44,054 nucleotides of DNA from Acutalibacteraceae bacterium (GTDB taxonomy: Bacteria > Bacillota > Clostridia > Oscillospirales > Acutalibacteraceae): NCBI GenBank assembly GCA_045537315.1, contig JAZSPF010000042.1, positions 1 to 44,054 on the forward strand, in the 5' to 3' direction. Position numbers and translations under genes: made by a program. This document shows positions 4,816-44,054 of the stretch, one piece after another; within the stretch, counting starts at the first letter, position 1; every line of letters starts with the position of its first letter. A model generated the notes under the pieces. It was not told the DNA's origin and ran no database searches. It worked only from the letters and a program-made list of their open reading frames with translations.

Positions 4816-4994
4816 ACAAAACCTCCAAAATTATCTATAGAAAACATTAGTTTTTCTTATTTATATGGTTATTTTATACTAAAATTGAGAGAATTTCAAT
4901 AGTAAGAGACAAAAATAGTCAAGTCTGTTATATATGACAGAAAAAAAGGGAGCTTTTAGTGCTATTTAACGATAAAAAGCGGTAAATTTTGCAT

Positions 4995-5110
4995 GGGGGG
5001 CGGCTCCGCTGCCGAAGCGGTGCTTCGGCAAGCGACGCTGTCGCACAAAATCGCAAAGCGATTTTTGCGGAGCCGCCGCCCGCTTCATCACACTGACATA
5101 AATCGTCAGC
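4995..5110 (-). repeat. four-helix-junction repeat, copy A (with 5' CTGAC/GTCAG hairpin module)
   Basis: Read on the minus strand: P1 GGCGGCTCCGC/GCGGAGCCGCC, P2 AAAATCGC-TTT-GCGATTTT, P3 GCGAC-AGC-GTCGC, P4 TGCCGAAGC-ACC-GCTTCGGCA. Same architecture as the copies at 21515 and 43884. Confidence 0.85.
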
Positions 5111-5169
5111 AAGCAAACTGCAAATTTTTGCCATGTTATATAAAGGAACTGTTTTGATTTATATTTTCA

Positions 5170-5198
5170 TTGACAAAACTTAAGATAAATGATATAGT
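5170..5198 (+). promoter_or_regulatory. sigma-A type promoter candidate for glnA
   Basis: TTGACA (5170-5175), 17-nt spacer, TATAGT (5193-5198), about 48 nt upstream of the glnA ATG. Confidence 0.5.
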
Positions 5199-8793: not shown

Positions 8794-8869
8794 GCTGGAA
8801 TAGCTCAGTTGGTAGAGCAGCGCATTCGTAATGCGCAGGTCGCGTGTTCGAGTCACGTTTCCAGCTCCA
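8794..8869 (+). tRNA. tRNA-Thr (anticodon CGT), CCA encoded
   Basis: 76 nt. Acceptor GCTGGAA/TTCCAGC, D arm GCTC-AGTTGGTA-GAGC, anticodon stem GCGCA/TGCGC with loop TTCGTAA, T arm GCGTG-TTCGAGT-CACGT, then discriminator T plus CCA. Confidence 0.93.
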
Positions 8870-8912: not shown

Positions 8913-8914
8913 GA

Positions 8915-9080
8915 ATGATATCCGTTTCTTGGGGAACGGGTGATATATCTTCGATATGATATCGCTCTGCGAGCGATGATATATGCCTGCGGCATATGAA
9001 GGAATGGATATTATATCATATTTGCAGAGCAAATATATCATACAGCTTGCTGTATATCATATCGCGTCAGCGATATATCA
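8915..9080. repeat. array of about 8 short hairpins with conserved (T)ATAT(CA) flanks and variable GC cores, period about 20 nt
   Basis: Examples: ATCGCTC-TGC-GAGCGAT, ATATGCC-TGC-GGCATAT, ATATTTGC-AGA-GCAAATAT, ATACAGC-TT-GCTGTAT, ATATCGC-GTCA-GCGATAT, CCGTT..AACGG. Units are separated by GATAT/ATATCA. Confidence 0.75.
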
Positions 9081-20547: not shown

Positions 20548-20563
20548 GGAAACTAATATAAAC

Positions 20564-20594
20564 AAAGGCAGAGGAGTTGCTTCCTCTGCCTTTT
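20564..20594 (+). terminator. rho-independent terminator
   Basis: GGCAGAGGA-gttgct-TCCTCTGCC followed by TTTT. Confidence 0.8.
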
Positions 20595-20595
20595 G

Positions 20596-21514
20596 GTTGT
20601 TTTTAGCATTTTTAGATTCTCGATAAAATCGCAGATTTTGTCATATTAAGCCGAAGCCATTTCATTCATGCACCTTCAGGTGCATATTGGGAATTCGGAA
20701 CTATGAATTAAATAGCTGCCCGATAGTGGACAGCTCTTTTTATATTTATCAGGCAAAACTTTCCCGCTTCGGAAACTGCATACAGACGAAGGCGGGATGA
20801 GGCTTTTAAAAAGCATCGTATTATGTAAATTATATAAGCTTATAAAAAAGCACCGACTTTTTCGCTTCGTAGTCTGGCAGTTGAAGGCGGACTACGGCTG
20901 TATTGAAAAAGTACAAGCTACGAAACAGAACGAGAGCGCCTTTGCGTCTCGGCGCCCCTGAAAGGGGAGCTGTCAAAATCATTCTATGATTTTGACTGAG
21001 GGGTTCTTGTCGCTCCGGACAAAGGAAGTGCCATAGCGGCATGAGCGTAAAGAAGCTGACCTTTTGCTGTTTACTGATAAATGTGGAAATCAGTTCAGTT
21101 AAGGTTCCTCTTTCACAAGGCTATAAGTCTCTACTCCGCTCGCCACGGGGGCATTACTTTTGCACAGGCGAGCGCAAAAGTAATCAAAAGCGCCCTTTTT
21201 AGTGGATGTAAGTCGCAGGGCGACTTCGCCGAGGAAGTTTCATCATACTCTTACTAACTGCCTTTTCTGCGCATCTTCTATTTGGGAAGAAGTTATTCCT
21301 TATCGGCAAAGTCACATAGCTACTCTCTTCCTTACAGCTGCTTTTTTCCCAACTGCTCTATTTAAAACGGGTGCTAATAAAGGATACCGCTACTTTATCT
21401 TTTTTATACGCTCTCTACCGTGCGTGTTCTTTTGTTCTGCTTTAATTCATTCACTGCTCGCTCCCGGAGACGCTATGAGATGTTTTTCTTAGTGATTCGG
21501 GGAGGTTTGCTTTA
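20596..21514. other. ORF-free, hairpin-dense intergenic region (about 0.9 kb; 1.1 kb including repeat copy B)
   Basis: No ORF here has an RBS or a plausible composition. There are at least 9 short perfect hairpins (e.g. 20622-20642, 20668-20685, 20868-20896, 20972-20996, 21153-21184, 21211-21225), followed by a pyrimidine-rich tract at about 21240-21480. Confidence 0.7.
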
Positions 21515-21626
21515 CTGACGATTTTGGTTAGTTTGATGAAGAGGTGGCGGCTCCACAAAAATCGCTTTGCGATTTTGGGCGACGGTGTCGCTTGCCGAAT
21601 GAAATTCGGCAGTGGAGCCGCCGCAA
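21515..21626 (+). repeat. four-helix-junction repeat, copy B
   Basis: 5' hairpin CTGAC-gattttg-GTTAG. P1 GGCGGCTCCAC/GTGGAGCCGCC (21546-56/21612-22), P2 AAAATCGC-TTT-GCGATTTT, P3 GCGAC-GGT-GTCGC, P4 TGCCGAAT-GAA-ATTCGGCA. Confidence 0.85.
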
Positions 21627-21667
21627 GCGGTTACCTGCAGTTACTTCCTTGTTACTGATAAGAGAAC

Positions 21668-21701
21668 ATAAAAAAACGGCTCCCCTGTGGAAGCCGTTTG
21701 G
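21668..21701 (-). terminator. rho-independent terminator of fba
   Basis: On the minus strand: AAACGGCTTCC-aca-GGGGAGCCGTTT followed by TTTTTTT. Confidence 0.8.
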
Positions 21702-21710
21702 AATTTTATC

Positions 21711-30351: not shown

Positions 30352-31695
30352 ATGCACAACAAACAAAAAAGAAGATTTATCAGAATTATCAGTTTTCTTT
30401 CGGCGGCGGTTATTCTGCTGAGCTTCAGCACCGCCATATTCGCGTCCAAGGCAAAAAAATATGAATTTGCAAACGAGATAGTCTATCAGCGTTCAATGAA
30501 CGAGCTTTGCGAAAACCTTGATAATATCAGCGTCAGCCTGCAAAAAGGCATTTATTGCGGTACCGGAGAAAAACTGCTGAGTGTAGGCAACGAGCTGACA
30601 AGACAGGCAACCGCGGCAAAAATGTGTCTGTCACAGATAACTGACGAAAACATTGTCAGCGAAGAAATCTACAAATTCCTTTCTCAGATAGGCGCCTACA
30701 CAGTTTCACTTGCCCAAGGTGAAGATAAGCTGAGTATTTCTGAGAAAGATGCAGAAAGTCTTGCGGCTTTGCTTGAATATTCTCAGAAGCTGAGCCAATC
30801 CCTCAGCGAAGTCCTTTCCTCATACAGTGACGGCAGTGTTTCCACACAGAATAAAAAAAGCACTTTATCTCTTAATGTACCCGAGATGCCCAAAAGCCTT
30901 TCATCATCCCTTAACGATGCCGAGCAAAGCCTTACAGATTATCCCACACTTATTTATGACGGACCCTTTGCCGACAGCATTCTCAATAAAAAAGGCGGTC
31001 AAAGCCTTGAGGGGCTTCGTGAAATAACAAAGGAAGAAGCAAAGAAAAAAGCCGCCGAAATTATGAATACTGCCCCCGAAAGTCTCAGACAGGAAGAGGA
31101 CAGCAACTCAAAGATACCGCTTTACTGCTTCTCTAAAGGCGATATGAGTGTGGGCATAACAAAAAAAGGCGGCAAAATCTGCTATCTGATAAATCCCGTG
31201 TCACCTCTTGAAGAAACTATCAGCACACAGGAAGCTGTAAAAAGGGCGGGACAGTTTCTTAAAAAGTATGGTTACGACAATATGAAAGAGAGCTACTATA
31301 GTGTTTATGACGGAATTTGTACCGTTAATTTTGCTTACACCAACGAAGGGATAATTCACTACAGTGACCTTATAAAAGTCAGTGTCGCGCTCGACAGTGG
31401 GGAGGTCACTGCCCTTGATGCCACATCTTATCTTGTCAACCACTGCAAAAGGGATATATACGGCACTGTGGTAACGGAAAAAGAGGCTATAGAAAAAGTT
31501 TCTCCCCTGCTTTCCGTAACAGGCACAAAATCGGCGGTTATCCCTCTTGACACGGGCAAGGAAGCCTATTGCTATGAGTTTCACTGTAAGGACAAGCAGG
31601 GTCAGGAAGTTCTGGTCTATATTGACAAGCAAACAGGCGAAGAAAGAGATATTCTGTTGCTGCTTTATGCTGACGGGGGAACGCTGACAAAATAA
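30352..31695 (+). CDS. ypeB: germination protein YpeB-like (PepSY-domain)
   Basis: 447 aa with an N-terminal TM. The length and overall pattern resemble YpeB. Assigned by eye only. Confidence 0.6.
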   Translation: MHNKQKRRFIRIISFLSAAVILLSFSTAIFASKAKKYEFANEIVYQRSMNELCENLDNISVSLQKGIYCGTGEKLLSVGNELTRQATAAKMCLSQITDENIVSEEIYKFLSQIGAYTVSLAQGEDKLSISEKDAESLAALLEYSQKLSQSLSEVLSSYSDGSVSTQNKKSTLSLNVPEMPKSLSSSLNDAEQSLTDYPTLIYDGPFADSILNKKGGQSLEGLREITKEEAKKKAAEIMNTAPESLRQEEDSNSKIPLYCFSKGDMSVGITKKGGKICYLINPVSPLEETISTQEAVKRAGQFLKKYGYDNMKESYYSVYDGICTVNFAYTNEGIIHYSDLIKVSVALDSGEVTALDATSYLVNHCKRDIYGTVVTEKEAIEKVSPLLSVTGTKSAVIPLDTGKEAYCYEFHCKDKQGQEVLVYIDKQTGEERDILLLLYADGGTLTK

Positions 31696-32021
31696 ATGCA
31701 GAATGCAGAGTGCAGAATGCAGAATTGTGGTCGCGACTTTTAAAGTGCAGAACGCAGAGCGCAGAGTGCAGAACGGTGGTCGCGGACATAGCCTACCGCG
31801 ATCAAAAGTTTTTCTCCGCGGAATGAAAACTCAGAAACGGTAAATTTCATCAATCTTAATATAAGGCAGGTCACTACCAAACTGTAGTGACCTGCTGAAC
31901 TTTTATAATTTACAGAGTCGGTATCTTATGCCAACTCTCTTTGCGGGTAAAAATGTACCTTTTAGTTAAAAGTGATCCCGCGACCACAATTCTGCATTCT
32001 GCACTCTGCACTCTGCATTCA
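31695..32021 (+). repeat. heptad-TIR element, copy E1 (about 327 bp)
   Basis: Left end has two units: (RRYGCAG)x4 + AATTGTGGTCGCGAC, then TTTTAAAG + (RRYGCAG)x4 + AACGGTGGTCGCGG. The right end (31978-32020) is the inverted complement of unit 1 with about 1 mismatch. The core holds the hairpin GCAGGTCACTAC/GTAGTGACCTGC. Confidence 0.85.
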
Positions 32022-39103: not shown

Positions 39104-41173
39104 TTATTCTTCGGCGTCTTTCTTAGCGTCTTCAATAACCTTTTGAGCTACGTTGGCAGGAGCATCCTCATATCTTGCGAATGTAAGGCTGAAATAGCCT
39201 CTGCCTGCTGTTACTGAACGAAGTGTTGTTGAGAAGTCGCCCATTTCTGCCATGGGTACTTCGGCAACGAGTTCCTGCATCATAGGCTCATCTGCTGCAC
39301 CCATACCGAGTACGCGGCCACGGCGCTTTGTGATATCACCCATAATGTCACCCAGGTTGATGTCGGGCATATAAACCTTAAGCTCACCGATGGGTTCAAG
39401 GATAACGGGGCTTGCCTGAGCCATACCATTCTTGAAGGCTATCTTAGCGGCTGTCTTGAATGCCATTTCGTTTGAGTCAACGGGATGGTATGAGCCGTCG
39501 TAAAGCACTGCCTTAAGACCAACAACGGGATAACCTGCAAGGGGACCCTTGAGGATAGCTTCCTGAAGACCTTTTTCAACTGCAGGGAAGAAGTTCTTGG
39601 GTACTGAGCCGCCGACAACTTCTGTTTCGAAGATAAGGTGATCTTCTGTATGGGGTTCGAAGCGTACCCAAACATCACCGAACTGACCTGAACCGCCTGA
39701 CTGCTTCTTGTGACGTCCCTGAACCTGACAGGTCTTGCGGATGGTCTCTCTGTATGCAACCTTGGGAATGCGAAGGTCGATTTCTACGCCGTACTTTGTC
39801 TTGAGCTTTGAAACAACGATATCAAGATGCTGTTCGCCGAGACCTGAAAGTACCATTTCCTTGGTTTCTTCATTTGTTGCAAACTTAACTGTGGGATCTT
39901 CGTCCATAATCTTACGAAGACCTGAAGCAACCTTTTCTTCTTCGCCCTTTTTCTTAACTACAACTGCCATTGAAAGTGAAGCTGCGGGGAAGTCTACGCC
40001 TTCGAGAGTGATGGGCTTTTTAGCTGAGCAGATAGTGTCACCTGTCTGAACATCCTGAAGCTTTGTGATAACGCCGATGTCACCCAGGTCGATAGCTGCT
40101 GTGTCTTCCTGCTTAATACCCTTAACGGTAACGAGCTTACCCATTCTCTGGGTTTCGCCTGTTCTTGCGTTATAGCAGGGTGTGTCGGGAGTAATCTTAC
40201 CTGCAAGCACCTTAACGAAGGACATCTTGCCTACGAAGGGGTCAGAGATTGTCTTGAAGCAAAGAGCTGCAAGGTCTTCCTTGGCTGAGCAAGCAATTTC
40301 AACATCGTTGCCGTCTGCATCCTTAGCGATTTCAGGCTTAGCCTTATCGGGTGAGGGAGCTGAATATACAATAGCGTCAAGGAGCATATCACAGCCGTCA
40401 ACCTTAGTTGCTGAAAGTGCATAAACAGGATAGATTTCGCCTGTTTCAACGCCCTTTGTAAGTCCGTTTATGATTTCTTCTTTTGTGAGAGGTTCGCCTT
40501 CAAAGAATTTTTCCATAAGCTCTTCGTCAACGGTTGCAACAGCTTCTTCAAGAGCTGCTCTCATAGCAAGAATATTCTCATCTGAAGGGATTTCAATTTC
40601 AACGGGTCTGCCGTTGGGATATTTGAAAGCCTTGTTTGAGCAAAGATTTACAAAAGCTTCGCAAACGCCGCCGTTCATATAAGGTACAACAACGGGGCAG
40701 AGCTTTGTGCCGAGATGTGCCTTTAAGGTGTCAAATGTTTTATAGAAATCTCTGTGCTCTGAGTCAACCTTTGTGATTGCAAAGAACTTAGCGATATTTC
40801 TTGCATCTGCTGCCTTTATAGCCTTTTCAAGACCGACGTCGATGCCTGAGCCTGCTGATGTAACGATAAGTGCGCAGTCTGCTGCACGCATAGCTTCAGC
40901 CATTCCGCCGGCGAAGTCGAACTTACCGGGGGCATCAAGAACGTTAATCTTTGTGTCTCTCCACTCTAATGATGCAGTTGCAGCTGAGATTGAGCACTTG
41001 CGCTTCTTTTCTTCTGCATCGTAGTCCATTATTGTATTACCGTCGATTACACGGCCGAGTCTGTCTGTTACACCTGCAACATAGAACATAGCTTCTGCAA
41101 GTGCTGTCTTACCTTTACCTGTATGTCCCGCAATGGCGATGTTTCTGATGTTGTTTACTGAATAAGATTTCAA
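39104..41173 (-). CDS. elongation factor G paralog (EF-G2-like translational GTPase)
   Basis: About 689 aa with five-domain EF-G length. G1 AGHTGKGKT, G3 DAPG, G4 TKVD. Start is probably the TTG at 41173, 8 nt after GGAGG; the ORF-track start at 41179 is only 2 nt from the RBS. Confidence 0.8.
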   Translation of the reverse strand: MKSYSVNNIRNIAIAGHTGKGKTALAEAMFYVAGVTDRLGRVIDGNTIMDYDAEEKKRKCSISAATASLEWRDTKINVLDAPGKFDFAGGMAEAMRAADCALIVTSAGSGIDVGLEKAIKAADARNIAKFFAITKVDSEHRDFYKTFDTLKAHLGTKLCPVVVPYMNGGVCEAFVNLCSNKAFKYPNGRPVEIEIPSDENILAMRAALEEAVATVDEELMEKFFEGEPLTKEEIINGLTKGVETGEIYPVYALSATKVDGCDMLLDAIVYSAPSPDKAKPEIAKDADGNDVEIACSAKEDLAALCFKTISDPFVGKMSFVKVLAGKITPDTPCYNARTGETQRMGKLVTVKGIKQEDTAAIDLGDIGVITKLQDVQTGDTICSAKKPITLEGVDFPAASLSMAVVVKKKGEEEKVASGLRKIMDEDPTVKFATNEETKEMVLSGLGEQHLDIVVSKLKTKYGVEIDLRIPKVAYRETIRKTCQVQGRHKKQSGGSGQFGDVWVRFEPHTEDHLIFETEVVGGSVPKNFFPAVEKGLQEAILKGPLAGYPVVGLKAVLYDGSYHPVDSNEMAFKTAAKIAFKNGMAQASPVILEPIGELKVYMPDINLGDIMGDITKRRGRVLGMGAADEPMMQELVAEVPMAEMGDFSTTLRSVTAGRGYFSLTFARYEDAPANVAQKVIEDAKKDAEE

Positions 41174-41348
41174 TTCCAATACCTCCTAAGACCTCATTTT
41201 TACAAGGTCCCTAATTATTTTAAAACCTCAAAGTTTTCTCCTTTTGAAGTTAACATTAGTTATTTTATCATAAATTAGACAAAAAAACAACGGATTATTG
41301 ACTAATTTTATGCATTATTTTTTGGTCAGTGTGTATAAAAACCTAAAT

Positions 41349-41760
41349 AAATGCAAAATGCAGAGTGTAGAATGCGGAATTGTGGTCGTTACTTTTAAAG
41401 TGCAGAACGCAGAACGCAGAGTGCAGAACGGTGGTCGCGTGTAAAGCTCTGCTTAAGGATAATTCTTACCAGCAAAGGAAATTGGTATCAGATACCGACT
41501 CCCAAGATTATAATCCTTATCCGTCACTGCGTGACACCTTCCCTTGTGTTAAGGGGAAGGCGTAAATAAAGCAAGTCACTACCGATTTGGAAGTGACTTG
41601 CCATCGTTTATTAAGATTGATGAGTTTTGCCGCCTTTGAGCTTCATCTACGCGGAGGGAGACTCAAGGTTAGTCAGTGGTGAAGTCGCGACCACCGTTCT
41701 GCACTCTGCGCTCTGCGTTCTGCACTTTAAAAGTCGCGACCGCAATTTAGCATTTTTAAA
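41349..41760 (-). repeat. heptad-TIR element, copy E2 (about 410 bp, core inverted relative to E1)
   Basis: Two heptad units on the left (41349-41441). On the right, an inverted unit 2 plus a truncated unit 1 (41684-41760). The core aligns to the reverse complement of the E1 core and carries an extra ~60 nt (41510-41570). Confidence 0.85.
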
Positions 41761-42274
41761 TAGCTATCATAATGCTGATAACGAGAATTGCAAGGAAGGT
41801 CAATGAGTACCTCTCAAGATAAGCGCCCACATAAGTTATTGCAACACCCGGAGCGTAAATAATCTTCTGAAGGATGTTGCCATTATGATAAACCTTATCT
41901 ACCATATTCATGGCATCCTCAATAAGAGGGAAGGCGTTGCAGAAAAGTGAAACCGCAAACCAATAGGAAACTGCGCAGGTAGCGACTAAGAATGCACCTT
42001 TGAACTGTAACCACAGAAGCATCATTGCAGGAATAAGACCGAAGATGAAGGCACCCAGCATATTGAAGAAGAAGGGTACAAAGCACATAGCGAAGGCTGA
42101 ACGTGCAGTGGGCATAAGCTCGTGCTCAATGTGGCTTGACATTTCATCGCGTCTGAGGTAACGGTTATCCTCAACAACAACCTTTGAAGCACGGCATACG
42201 GTCTGTTCCCACATGCCTCTGACAAGGGCACCGGGAGCTGTTAAATATTTAAGAAAGATGTAAAGTCCTGTCAT
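41756..42274 (-). CDS. hypothetical polytopic membrane protein
   Basis: 172 aa with 4 hydrophobic segments. Its ATG overlaps the stop of the upstream gene (ATGA at 42274). Confidence 0.6.
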   Translation of the reverse strand: MTGLYIFLKYLTAPGALVRGMWEQTVCRASKVVVEDNRYLRRDEMSSHIEHELMPTARSAFAMCFVPFFFNMLGAFIFGLIPAMMLLWLQFKGAFLVATCAVSYWFAVSLFCNAFPLIEDAMNMVDKVYHNGNILQKIIYAPGVAITYVGAYLERYSLTFLAILVISIMIAI

Positions 42275-43734
42275 CAGATGCTACCTCCCTTGTCTGCTAA
42301 AACTTCCTCGAGTGTCAGCTTGTCTTTCTTGTACTTTTCAACAAGGTCACTGAGTTCATAGCCGCTGTTTTCGAGTATGGATTTCATTTCGTCATAGATA
42401 TCTTCGTTGCCGTTATATGCGGCGCAAAGAGCATAGAGGTTGCAGGTCTGCACCGTGTAAGCACTCTGAGCCATATATTCATCCATTGTTTCAAGAGCTG
42501 TATCACCTTCGCCCTTGAGAAGATATGCTATAGCCATTGTGGGCATATATGAAATATCGCCTGAGGGAAGATTTGCTTTTGCCTCTTCACAGACTTCGAG
42601 CATCTTATCTGTGTCGGGAGTTTCAAGCCAGCGGTAGTAGCTTGCTTTGGCAACATAAGCGTTGGAGTCTTCTTTGTTGATGTTTACGAGTCTCTGATAA
42701 AGTTCTTCTACAAGCTCGCCGTCACCTGCTTTTGCTGCTATTGCACAGTAGTTTGCAAGATAAGCCCATTCCATATTTCTGTCGTTGATTTCGTCAACCT
42801 TTTTCAGCTGAGCAAGCTGTGCGTCAACGCTTTCTTCATGGAAGCTCATAACAACATATTTGTAGTATTCGATGAATAAGGGGTCATAAGCTTCGATGCC
42901 TTCCTCTTCTGAGGGAGTTGTTTCGTAAAGAGCGTCAAGCTGTGCCATTATTTCATCATAGTCATACTCTTCGCCTGTCATTACGGGTTCAATAATTTCT
43001 GCAACCTTATAATATGTTTTGGTCAGTGATGTGGCACTGTCAAGCAAAGCTGCATATTTTTTATTCCAGGGCATTTTAAGCTGTTTTTCACTGTAAAGTC
43101 TCTCAATGAGAGCTGCGGCATCAGTGATATAGCCTGTTTTGCCATAGCCTTCAAGAAGATCTCTGACAGCCTTCATTGAAATTGTTTCATCACTTGCTGA
43201 TGAAACATAGCTGTAATAAGCTGTCATGCCTGTCATAACCTTGCCTGAGTCATAGTTGAGTGACGCATCGGCAACGGTGATAAAGGCCTCAGTGTAGCCT
43301 GCGCTTGCAACGCCTGTGAGTATGAAAACGGCAATCATAACAATTGTCATAAGAACACCGCTCCAGCGAACGGGATATTTCTTCATAAGTTCACGGCATT
43401 CATCACAGTAGGGATAATCCTCTCCGTAGTCTTCACTGCATTCGTTTTCACCGCAACATTCACAGAGTCTTATCTCTTTTTTCTCTTCTTCGGCAGAGTC
43501 CTCTGTATCGGTTTCGTTTATGTCCTCAAGCTCCTGAATGAGGACTTCTTCTTCGCTTGCAGCTTTATCAAGCTCCTGCTGGAACATATCTCTTATGTCT
43601 TCGAGCTCCTTTTCCAATTCGACAGCTTCTTCGGTTGCTTCCTCGGCAACTTCGTCAGCTACGGGTAAATCTGATGCTTCAGGTACCTGAGGGGTGTCCT
43701 GAGCTTCAAGCTCGTCTTTTCTGTTTTCGTCCAA
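42274..43734 (-). CDS. hypothetical protein: acidic N-terminus, Cys-rich zinc-ribbon, one TM, helical-repeat (TPR-like) C-terminal domain
   Basis: 486 aa. CECCGENEC...CDEC cluster and TM VLMTIVMIAVFILTGVASAGY. TTG start 8 nt after GGAGG. Confidence 0.6.
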   Translation of the reverse strand: MDENRKDELEAQDTPQVPEASDLPVADEVAEEATEEAVELEKELEDIRDMFQQELDKAASEEEVLIQELEDINETDTEDSAEEEKKEIRLCECCGENECSEDYGEDYPYCDECRELMKKYPVRWSGVLMTIVMIAVFILTGVASAGYTEAFITVADASLNYDSGKVMTGMTAYYSYVSSASDETISMKAVRDLLEGYGKTGYITDAAALIERLYSEKQLKMPWNKKYAALLDSATSLTKTYYKVAEIIEPVMTGEEYDYDEIMAQLDALYETTPSEEEGIEAYDPLFIEYYKYVVMSFHEESVDAQLAQLKKVDEINDRNMEWAYLANYCAIAAKAGDGELVEELYQRLVNINKEDSNAYVAKASYYRWLETPDTDKMLEVCEEAKANLPSGDISYMPTMAIAYLLKGEGDTALETMDEYMAQSAYTVQTCNLYALCAAYNGNEDIYDEMKSILENSGYELSDLVEKYKKDKLTLEEVLADKGGSI

Positions 43735-43883
43735 GATAAAGACCTCCTTAAAGTAATATTCTTTATTTTAGCATTTATTGAAATAAAATGCAACTGTTTA
43801 GCTGTTTAATTATGGGGATAAAACTTAAGAACAAGTTAAAAATTCAAACTGATAAGGCAGCTTTTAACTTTGCAAGGGGGAGA

Positions 43884-43997
43884 TTTGTCGTCAGTGTGTG
43901 CGGGGCGGCTCCACAAAAATCGCTTTGCGATTTTGGGCGACCTTCGGTCGCTTGCCTGACGCAGTCAGGCAGTGGAGCCGCCCACCGCTATCTGACG
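43884..43997 (+). repeat. four-helix-junction repeat, copy C
   Basis: P1 GGCGGCTCCAC/GTGGAGCCGCC (43904-14/43972-82), P2 AAAATCGC-TTT-GCGATTTT, P3 GCGACC-TTC-GGTCGC, P4 TGCCTGAC-GCA-GTCAGGCA. Outer pairing CGTCAG (43889-94) / CTGACG (43992-97). Confidence 0.85.
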
Positions 43998-44054
43998 GGC
44001 AAAGAACACCCTGCAAGGATAGCCCCTGCAGGGTGTAAGTCAATGAGGATGAAA

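Follow-up and report, generated by a model that had tools for sequence, protein, structure and literature searches.

A probable palindromic DNA repeat with four compensated helices, dispersed in Acutalibacteraceae and related gut Clostridia

We analysed a stretch of 44,054 nucleotides from an Acutalibacteraceae bacterium (called the window below), in which a first-pass annotation had described three intergenic copies, A, B and C, of a repeat built on a four-helix junction. The three copies were found at the places given for them, and their cores could be delimited from P1 to P1'. Copy A (core P1-P2-P3-P4-P1' at 4999-5077, minus strand, 79 nt) lies between the divergent glycogen phosphorylase and glutamine synthetase (glnA) genes. 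It is upstream of both predicted divergent promoters, the promoter-like site TTGACA-17-TATAGT of glnA (5170-5198, plus strand) and the promoter-like site TTGAAA-17-TAAAAT of the glycogen phosphorylase gene (4899-4871, minus strand), and judging from these sites it is probably outside both mRNAs. Copy B (core at 21546-21622, plus strand, 77 nt from P1 to P1') is located in a gene-free mosaic of 1.1 kb and is followed, after its 3' arm, by the terminator (21674-21699, minus strand) that belongs to the convergent aldolase gene. Copy C (core at 43904-43982, plus strand, 79 nt) is upstream of a divergent gene with no assigned function. Two of the three copies of the window are in divergent promoter regions and not at gene 3' ends. 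No member of a transposase, RAYT or recombinase family was found among the 35 ORFs of the window that were scanned.

Several other features of the window were observed. The gene-free 1.1 kb that contains copy B (20548-21710) is built of small modules (approximately 20651-20687, 20755-21032 and 21065-21196), which recur in another order and orientation beside element copies in loci L053 and L010, and GATAAAATCGCAGATTTTGT, at approximately 20623-20642, has the appearance of a solo P2 in decay. No solo half-site of P1 or P2 was otherwise found in the window or in the copy-bearing loci. A tRNA-Thr(CGT) gene at about 8794-8869 is followed by a match to the Gut-1 RNA at 8913-8987 (55.2 bits for a gathering score of 50). 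At 109-1722 there is a tandem array of three paralogous ORFs (181, 180 and 178 amino acids) in repeat units of 545 bp; the units are 75-88% identical, and none of the three ORFs has a Pfam match.

In all three copies, the core consists of an 11-bp closing helix, P1, around three abutting hairpins, for a total of 77-79 nt. The order is GGCGGCTCCRC, A, AAAATCGC-TTT-GCGATTTT, two nucleotides, a hairpin of 5-6 bp, T, a hairpin of 8-9 bp, and GYGGAGCCGCC. In copy B, on the plus strand, the 5' strand of P1, GGCGGCTCCAC (21546-21556), pairs with the 3' strand, GTGGAGCCGCC (21612-21622), as seen in the fold. Between them are the P2 hairpin AAAATCGC-TTT-GCGATTTT (21558-21576), the P3 hairpin GCGAC-GGT-GTCGC (21579-21591) and the P4 hairpin TGCCGAAT-GAA-ATTCGGCA (21593-21611), all present in the fold. 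The helix sequences that had been quoted for the three copies were all correct, with P1 being CAC/GTG in copies B and C and CGC/GCG in copy A, and P4 existing in three variants. The P3 helix GCGAC/GTCGC was likewise found with loops GGT and AGC, the helix of copy C being one pair longer with loop TTC.

The results of our folding analysis showed that the four-way junction is the minimum-energy structure of each copy, with z-scores of -6.8 to -7.4, and that the reverse strands of the three copies fold equally well, with z-scores of -7.5 to -8.9. A covariance model of the family detected exactly three copies in the window, at 90-103 bits (90.1 bits for copy A and 103.4 bits for copy C), the next match being at 13.7 bits. 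The P2 hairpin occurs at three sites in the window when 0.04 are expected by chance.

The repeated unit had been described as 112-116 nt long, which proved too short, particularly on the 3' side: conserved arms are present on both flanks, and the unit is a core flanked by two arms of about 35-45 bp, which form an imperfect inverted repeat. Alignment of the 5' flanks with the reverse-complemented 3' flanks of all 45 copies of the family (described below) showed that one consensus, (T-run)AGTCWGYG..(A)AGAGGGTGGGC, running into P1 GGCGGCTCCRC, fits both flanks, with frequent internal deletions in the arms. The 5' arm of copy B, TTTGCTTTACTGACGATTTTGGTTAGTTTGATGAAGAGGT (21506-21545, plus strand), is common to the 5' arm of copy A and to L053, and carries a small hairpin, CTGAC/GTTAG, at 21515-21531 on the plus strand. 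Its 3' arm (21623-21664, plus strand) has its own small hairpin, CAGTTAC/GTAACTG, and part of this arm, CTGCAGTTACT, is common to the 3' flank of L053. The 5' arm of copy A, TTTGCTTGCTGACGATTTATGTCAGTGTGATGAAGCGGGC (5078-5117, minus strand), is homologous to that of copy B, and the reverse complement of its 3' arm (4955-4998, minus strand, outer limit approximate) has the TTTTAGTGCTAT... arm motif of the other copies. Farther out, copies A and B have another stretch in common, TTTGCTTnCTGACGAtTTnnGTYAGTnTGATGAAG, which forms a small hairpin of its own. The 5' arm of copy C, TTTGTCGTCAGTGTGTGCGG (43884-43903, plus strand), pairs with the 3' arm in the extended fold, and this 3' arm, CACCGCTATCTGACGGGCAAAG (43983-44005, plus strand), is homologous to the L064 arm TCACCGCTGACCCG, which is on the same side of a shared gene.

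Core and arms together measure about 135-170 bp and contain no ORF, and the full element folds as one long interrupted stem with the three hairpins as a cap. The mutual similarity of the window copies stops inside the element and its arms, and the copies therefore do not belong to larger duplicated segments. No direct repeats were seen at the putative ends, which are only approximate, and the all-against-all comparison of the loci gave no clean empty site. In seven loci of three genomes (L009:5899-5927, L017:233-261, L034:5689-5717, L059, L067, L075 and L057), a conserved terminator-like palindrome, GCAGGTCGCTACCnnGGTAGCGACCTGC, followed by a T-run flanks the four-way element, together with further common modules such as AAACGGATACAATCGGAGCGAAGCGACCCG. 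As far as their sequences go, this palindrome and the shared modules suggest larger composite repeat units. The module clusters resemble the mosaic clusters of pneumococcal BOX, RUP and SPRITE (PMC3049150, PMC10969869).

A pattern scan for CAAAAATCGCNNNGCGATTTTG, made on one genome per species, showed many copies in the Acutalibacteraceae MAGs JAZSKE01, JAZTYQ01, JAZNUW01, JAZSGK01 and JAZTWC01, and the presence of the element in Clostridia MAGs from yak caecum, roe-deer caecum and human gut. The covariance model (R1), built from 33 copies in a hand-made alignment (A1), caught copies missed by the exact pattern in the window and in the element-bearing loci that were fetched. A second scan of metagenomes with the two P1 strands only gave four true members (L143, L165, L175 and L185), and P2 stays AAAATCGC-like in these four copies, which were found without using it. 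The remaining P1-only matches were rejected, being mostly chance inverted repeats of GC-rich soil contigs. This pattern also caught an unrelated long-hairpin repeat, GGCGGCTCCGCCCGGCGACCG...CGGTCGCCGGGCGGAGCCGCC, with flanks that are also self-complementary, in loci L087, L093, L099, L105, L139 and L174 (contigs Ga0123337, Ga0123338 and Ga0209724). A total of 45 copies was obtained from the window, five Acutalibacteraceae MAGs, three Clostridia MAGs and four metagenome contigs.

The density of the element is about one copy per 14-15 kb, as calculated from the window (3 copies in 44 kb) and contig JAZSKE010000038.1 (at least 6 copies in 83.7 kb), and extrapolation of this density gives about 150-200 copies per genome. 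The genomes closest to the window are JAZTYQ01 and JAZSKE01, with 81-94% nucleotide identity over 40005-43843. Two more distant relatives (GlnA 85-87% identical, DNA 70-78%) had no copy in 41.5 kb, and the family is therefore confined to one clade. Comparison of the orthologous regions upstream of glnA offered no site comparable to that of copy A, the neighbouring genes being different in the relatives. A gene call for a glutamine synthetase of 661 amino acids with two successive Gln-synt_N/Gln-synt_C domain sets was observed at L207:10001-11986, and represents either two genes fused in tandem or an artefact of gene calling.

Searches for known counterparts agreed with the earlier statement that the element matches no Rfam family and no tRNA. 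Rfam 15 gave nothing at the gathering score at any copy, and at E<=10 copy B had only weak partial matches to unrelated families, the best being RF_site3 with 18.7 bits for a cut-off of 50. ARAGORN detected only the tRNA-Thr of the window and no tRNA at the copies. BLAST searches of plasmids and phages were without a match, and the viral contigs gave a chance match only. Searches of the literature by description returned nothing relevant, while those by sequence string gave no match for the P2 hairpin in the papers searched and, for the P1 string, a few unrelated eukaryotic or viral studies.

The differences between the three window copies had been said to preserve pairing, and alignment of the 45 copies (A4) showed compensated substitutions in each of the four helices, by which the fold is maintained. 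Standard pairs occupied 97.8% of the cells of A4, a percentage inflated by the fitting of this alignment to the model structure; the hand-made alignment A1 gave the same picture, with 95.6% paired. Changes on both sides were seen in 23 of the 33 pairs (117 cells), while about 7 cells were changed on one side only, giving a wobble pair. None of 500 shuffles of A4 reached any of the five measures, and pairing dropped to 31-50% when the 3' partners were slid as a control.

The four helices differ in the part of them that is conserved. P1 and P2 are conserved in sequence, yet compensated swaps are present in both: P1 is 98.4% paired across the 45 copies, with 4 pairs changed on both sides, and P2, which is the most sequence-conserved of the inner helices, exists in compensated variants (GAAATCGC/GCGATTTC, TAAATCGC/GCGATTTA, AAAATTGC/GCAATTTT and AATCGCC/GGCGATT). 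The description of P2 as invariant holds for the three window copies, where it is identical, but not for the family, in which it varies. P3 (6 of 6 pairs changed on both sides) and P4 (7 of 8 pairs) turn over completely in sequence in the divergent members. A subfamily of the form ..CCAT-TAAATCGC..GCGATTTA..ACCCGAAT..ATTCGGGT-ATGG.. (L010:4768, L033:2720, L064:7725 and L020:1479) carries several paired substitutions at once relative to the main type. Copies decaying with mismatches were also found (L014, L029:39, L045, L050 and L059). A LexA (Cheo) box in P4 was considered and rejected by inspection, its spacing being N3 instead of N4 and its sequence not being conserved.

Functional RNAs normally tolerate G-U pairs on the transcribed strand. 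We counted wobble pairs on both strands, and an early impression of a G-U excess on the P2-first strand disappeared on counting, with 17 G-U pairs on one strand and 13 on the other, most of the 17 being one recurrent junction pair; wobble asymmetry was thus rejected as a test of the transcribed strand. The summed folding energies were also close, at -2350 kcal/mol on one strand and -2319 kcal/mol on the other. Pairing that is strictly of the Watson-Crick type and symmetric between the strands, as here, is characteristic of a DNA palindrome.

Comparison of copies with identical stems showed that the loops exist in complementary versions. On identical P2 stems we found the complementary loop pairs TTT/AAA and GAA/TTC, and on identical P4 stems CGGAC-TTC-GTCCG and CGGAC-GAA-GTCCG in one case and CGAAC-TTC-GTTCG and CGAAC-GAA-GTTCG in a second case. 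Judged by their sequences, these complementary pairs are the product expected of hairpin inversion. A larger inversion was seen at the site of copy C, where the core is in the opposite orientation in L020 and L064 while the homologous arm (CACCGCT..TGAC) is on the same side of the shared gene despite the inverted core. The P3 and P4 variants recombine freely between copies, as would be expected from gene conversion.

The occupancy of sites was also compared between species. Several copies are at the same site in two species, with DNA about 80% identical and the pairing intact; their retention could be due to purifying selection, if the element serves the host. Presence differed between species at one shared site, the only such case among all the loci compared: L020 and L064 have another copy between an EF-G-like gene and the next gene, where the window has none. 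At its EF-G-like site the window has a different palindromic repeat instead, at 41371-41456 and 41669-41754. This second repeat (41345-41754), unrelated to the four-way element, has arms that are 84% complementary and contain runs of GCAGAAC-type heptamers, and one of its arms recurs at 31690-31784 with 94% identity.

The copies are always intergenic and are found in either orientation. By counts that rest on crude ORF calls, 9 copies are sense and 8 antisense between co-directional genes, 11 are between convergent genes and 3 are between divergent genes. These counts led us to conclude that the orientation of the element is unrelated to transcription and that it prefers sites beside the 3' ends of genes. 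The element was found to have neither a promoter nor a terminator that is conserved.

The P2 hairpin was also encountered in repeats of other phyla. A separate long-hairpin repeat (L005:6685-6830, L015:4952-5098 and about 30 other loci of Halieaceae, Spongiibacteraceae and other gammaproteobacteria) carries CCAAAAATCGCGNAGCGATTTTGG, the same hairpin as P2, at its tip. Its outer stem of about 20 bp is wholly different between copies and perfectly complementary within each, and it is unusual for a constant core to be surrounded by outer stems that vary in this way while remaining self-complementary. In Marinilabilia sp. UBA5340 (L011, L022, L032, L072 and L082), a multi-copy repeat has the exact CAAAAATCGCTTTGCGATTTTG hairpin in a short imperfect palindrome. 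The sharing of the CAAAAATCGC-NNN-GCGATTTTG hairpin with the Halieaceae, Spongiibacteraceae and Marinilabilia repeats could point to a widely shared hairpin-binding factor instead of a coincidence. The P2 hairpin was rejected as the end of an Endomicrobia transposon, the paired matches flanking housekeeping genes and being plain terminator-like hairpins at gene ends.

Taken together, these results make it probable that the three copies are members of a dispersed palindromic DNA repeat, non-autonomous and present in high copy number, of the Acutalibacteraceae and of gut Clostridia related to them. The compensated changes most likely reflect the maintenance of a DNA palindrome and not of an RNA. 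The near-pure Watson-Crick stems, the folding of both strands, the random orientation and the flipped loops and core agree with the first-pass annotation, which leaned to a REP-like element at the DNA level. A structured RNA with the junction as its functional unit and with selection acting on the transcript is quite unlikely by comparison, whether it came from a small RNA gene in many copies or from a cis-regulatory element in a UTR. Such an RNA would account for a very stable fold (z about -7), for strong covariation in all four helices, for the conservation of P1 and P2 in sequence when P3 and P4 are variable, as in protein- or ligand-binding RNAs, for the co-orientation of copies A and C with the downstream gene or region, and for the retention of copies at orthologous sites. 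However, wobble pairs are nearly absent, no strand is favoured by its folding or by its number of G-U pairs, sense and antisense copies between co-directional genes are balanced, the core is inverted at an orthologous site, and the junction has almost no conserved unpaired nucleotides from which to form a pocket. Copy A moreover lies outside both predicted transcription units, the element has no conserved promoter or terminator of its own, its extrapolated copy number is in the hundreds, and it matches no Rfam family. Nothing was found to favour the tRNA-sized structured RNA that had been kept as an alternative.

Another explanation in terms of DNA is a site domesticated by the host for a chromosomal protein (gyrase, a nucleoid protein or a junction-binding protein) and kept by selection instead of mobility; sites of this type have reportedly been proposed for E. 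coli REP/BIME. Pairing that is symmetric on both strands, with a function independent of orientation, the sequence conservation of P1 and P2, the fairly even density and the retention of copies at sites shared across species would all suit it. We nevertheless consider it unlikely, as it has no known protein partner, as sites turn over and copies decay with mismatches, and as some related genomes are without the family altogether, the element therefore not being essential. Chance similarity, or three recent duplicates inside larger duplicated segments, would be compatible with the small copy number in the window, but the existence of 45 copies in many genomes, the end of similarity at the element arms and the very low chance expectation for P2 leave practically no room for it. 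There is, lastly, a small chance that the junction itself is the substrate of an undescribed structure-specific system, or that the family is a junction RNA of about 100 nt with a trans-acting partner. One possibility for the structure-specific system is an ssDNA transposase or a junction-recognising recombinase that reads P1 and P2 by sequence and P3 and P4 by shape, and flips the core. The hairpin in common with the unrelated repeats of Halieaceae, Spongiibacteraceae and Marinilabilia would be an additional hint in this direction.

If the element is a dispersed DNA palindrome, it would operate as follows. The two imperfect inverted-repeat arms (about 35-45 bp), which end in P1 GGCGGCTCCRC and enclose P2, P3 and P4, allow either single strand to form the four-way junction, and the constraint on pairing would act on DNA. 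The hairpins may form in single-stranded DNA and be needed there by a mobilising enzyme supplied in trans, which would be responsible for the presumed movement of the element. Alternatively or additionally, complementarity may be kept by hairpin-templated correction and by gene conversion between copies. P1 with the arms, and P2, are likely to be protein recognition sites read by their sequence, while P3 and P4 would be conserved in shape only. Any effect on the host would be a by-product: if REP, ERIC and Correia elements are taken as an analogy (PMC10969869, PMC3049150), the very stable fold could, when co-transcribed, affect host transcripts by stopping 3' exonucleases or by inviting cleavage by RNase III.

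The element appears to be abundant in a clade of uncultured Clostridia of the herbivore and human gut. Repeats of this type fragment MAG assemblies, give rise to rearrangements and to spurious ORF calls, and can change the stability of mRNAs; with model R1, annotators can mask the family and avoid mistaking the element for an RNA gene. As a case of a four-way junction with all its helices maintained by two-sided changes and wobble pairs nearly absent, it is also unusually clean, and it can be used in covariation screens for separating the maintenance of DNA palindromes from selection on RNA structure. If a cognate enzyme exists, the reading of two helices by sequence and of two by shape would make a tractable recognition problem.

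We then compared the element with known repeat systems. BOX of S. pneumoniae and S. suis (boxA-boxB(n)-boxC) is, like the element, an intergenic dispersed repeat of Bacillota of about 100-200 bp. In BOX as in the element, the outer modules pair together and the inner modules are independent hairpins, the modules are combined as mosaics and lie in clusters with repeats of other families, no gene is encoded, and it is uncertain which enzyme mobilises the repeat (PMC3049150). However, in BOX a single boxB unit is repeated in tandem a variable number of times, whereas the element shows no tandem variation and has three different perfect hairpins in fixed number, an 11-bp GC-rich closing helix and almost no junction nucleotides. 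The element is also GC-rich and its host clade is the Acutalibacteraceae; BOX is set apart by its architecture and is analogous only.

REP/REPIN sequences are, like the element, short GC-rich extragenic palindromes in hundreds of copies, a number that is an extrapolation for the element. In both, the hairpin is kept by compensated changes, either orientation occurs, and gene 3' ends are often the location. REP sequences have no target-site duplication, and for the element no direct repeat was seen at its approximately placed ends. REP is a single imperfect hairpin of 20-40 nt with a conserved 5' GTAG, often in inverted pairs, whereas the element is a four-helix unit with a core of 77-79 nt and long arms and has no GTAG at a conserved position. 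REP/REPIN sequences are mobilised by RAYTs (Y1 HUH transposases), and no RAYT is present among the window ORFs. REP/RAYT systems are mostly proteobacterial.

MITEs (Correia/NEMIS, ERIC, RUP and bcr1) share with the element a small size (<500 bp), the lack of coding capacity, multiple intergenic copies, highly base-paired transcripts and terminal inverted repeats, the outer ends of which are placed only approximately in the element. In-place inversion has been reported for Correia elements (PMC10969869). MITEs are typically AT-rich, with target-site duplications and with ends like those of a resident IS (PMC10969869, PMC3049150). In contrast, the element has a GC content of about 60% (56-72% across copies), no duplication seen at its approximate ends and no transposase among the window ORFs scanned. 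In addition, compensated evolution of internal hairpins would not be expected for MITEs if only their double-stranded ends are recognised.

An analogy in form only was found with the T-shaped inverted terminal repeat of parvoviruses such as AAV, which exists in flip and flop versions. The two have in common a closing stem, small internal palindromes with 3-nt loops and two orientations of the inner arms, and in the AAV repeat one structural part is read by sequence and the others by shape. However, the AAV repeat is a three-way junction that ends a linear ssDNA genome and serves rolling-hairpin replication, whereas the element is a four-way junction located at many chromosomal sites, with no Rep-like gene in sight and no true match in viral contigs. 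The four-way element appears to be undescribed, as a new family of the general kind of small dispersed palindromic repeats, and it is nearest to the streptococcal BOX in architecture, to REP/REPIN in behaviour and to MITEs in formal features.
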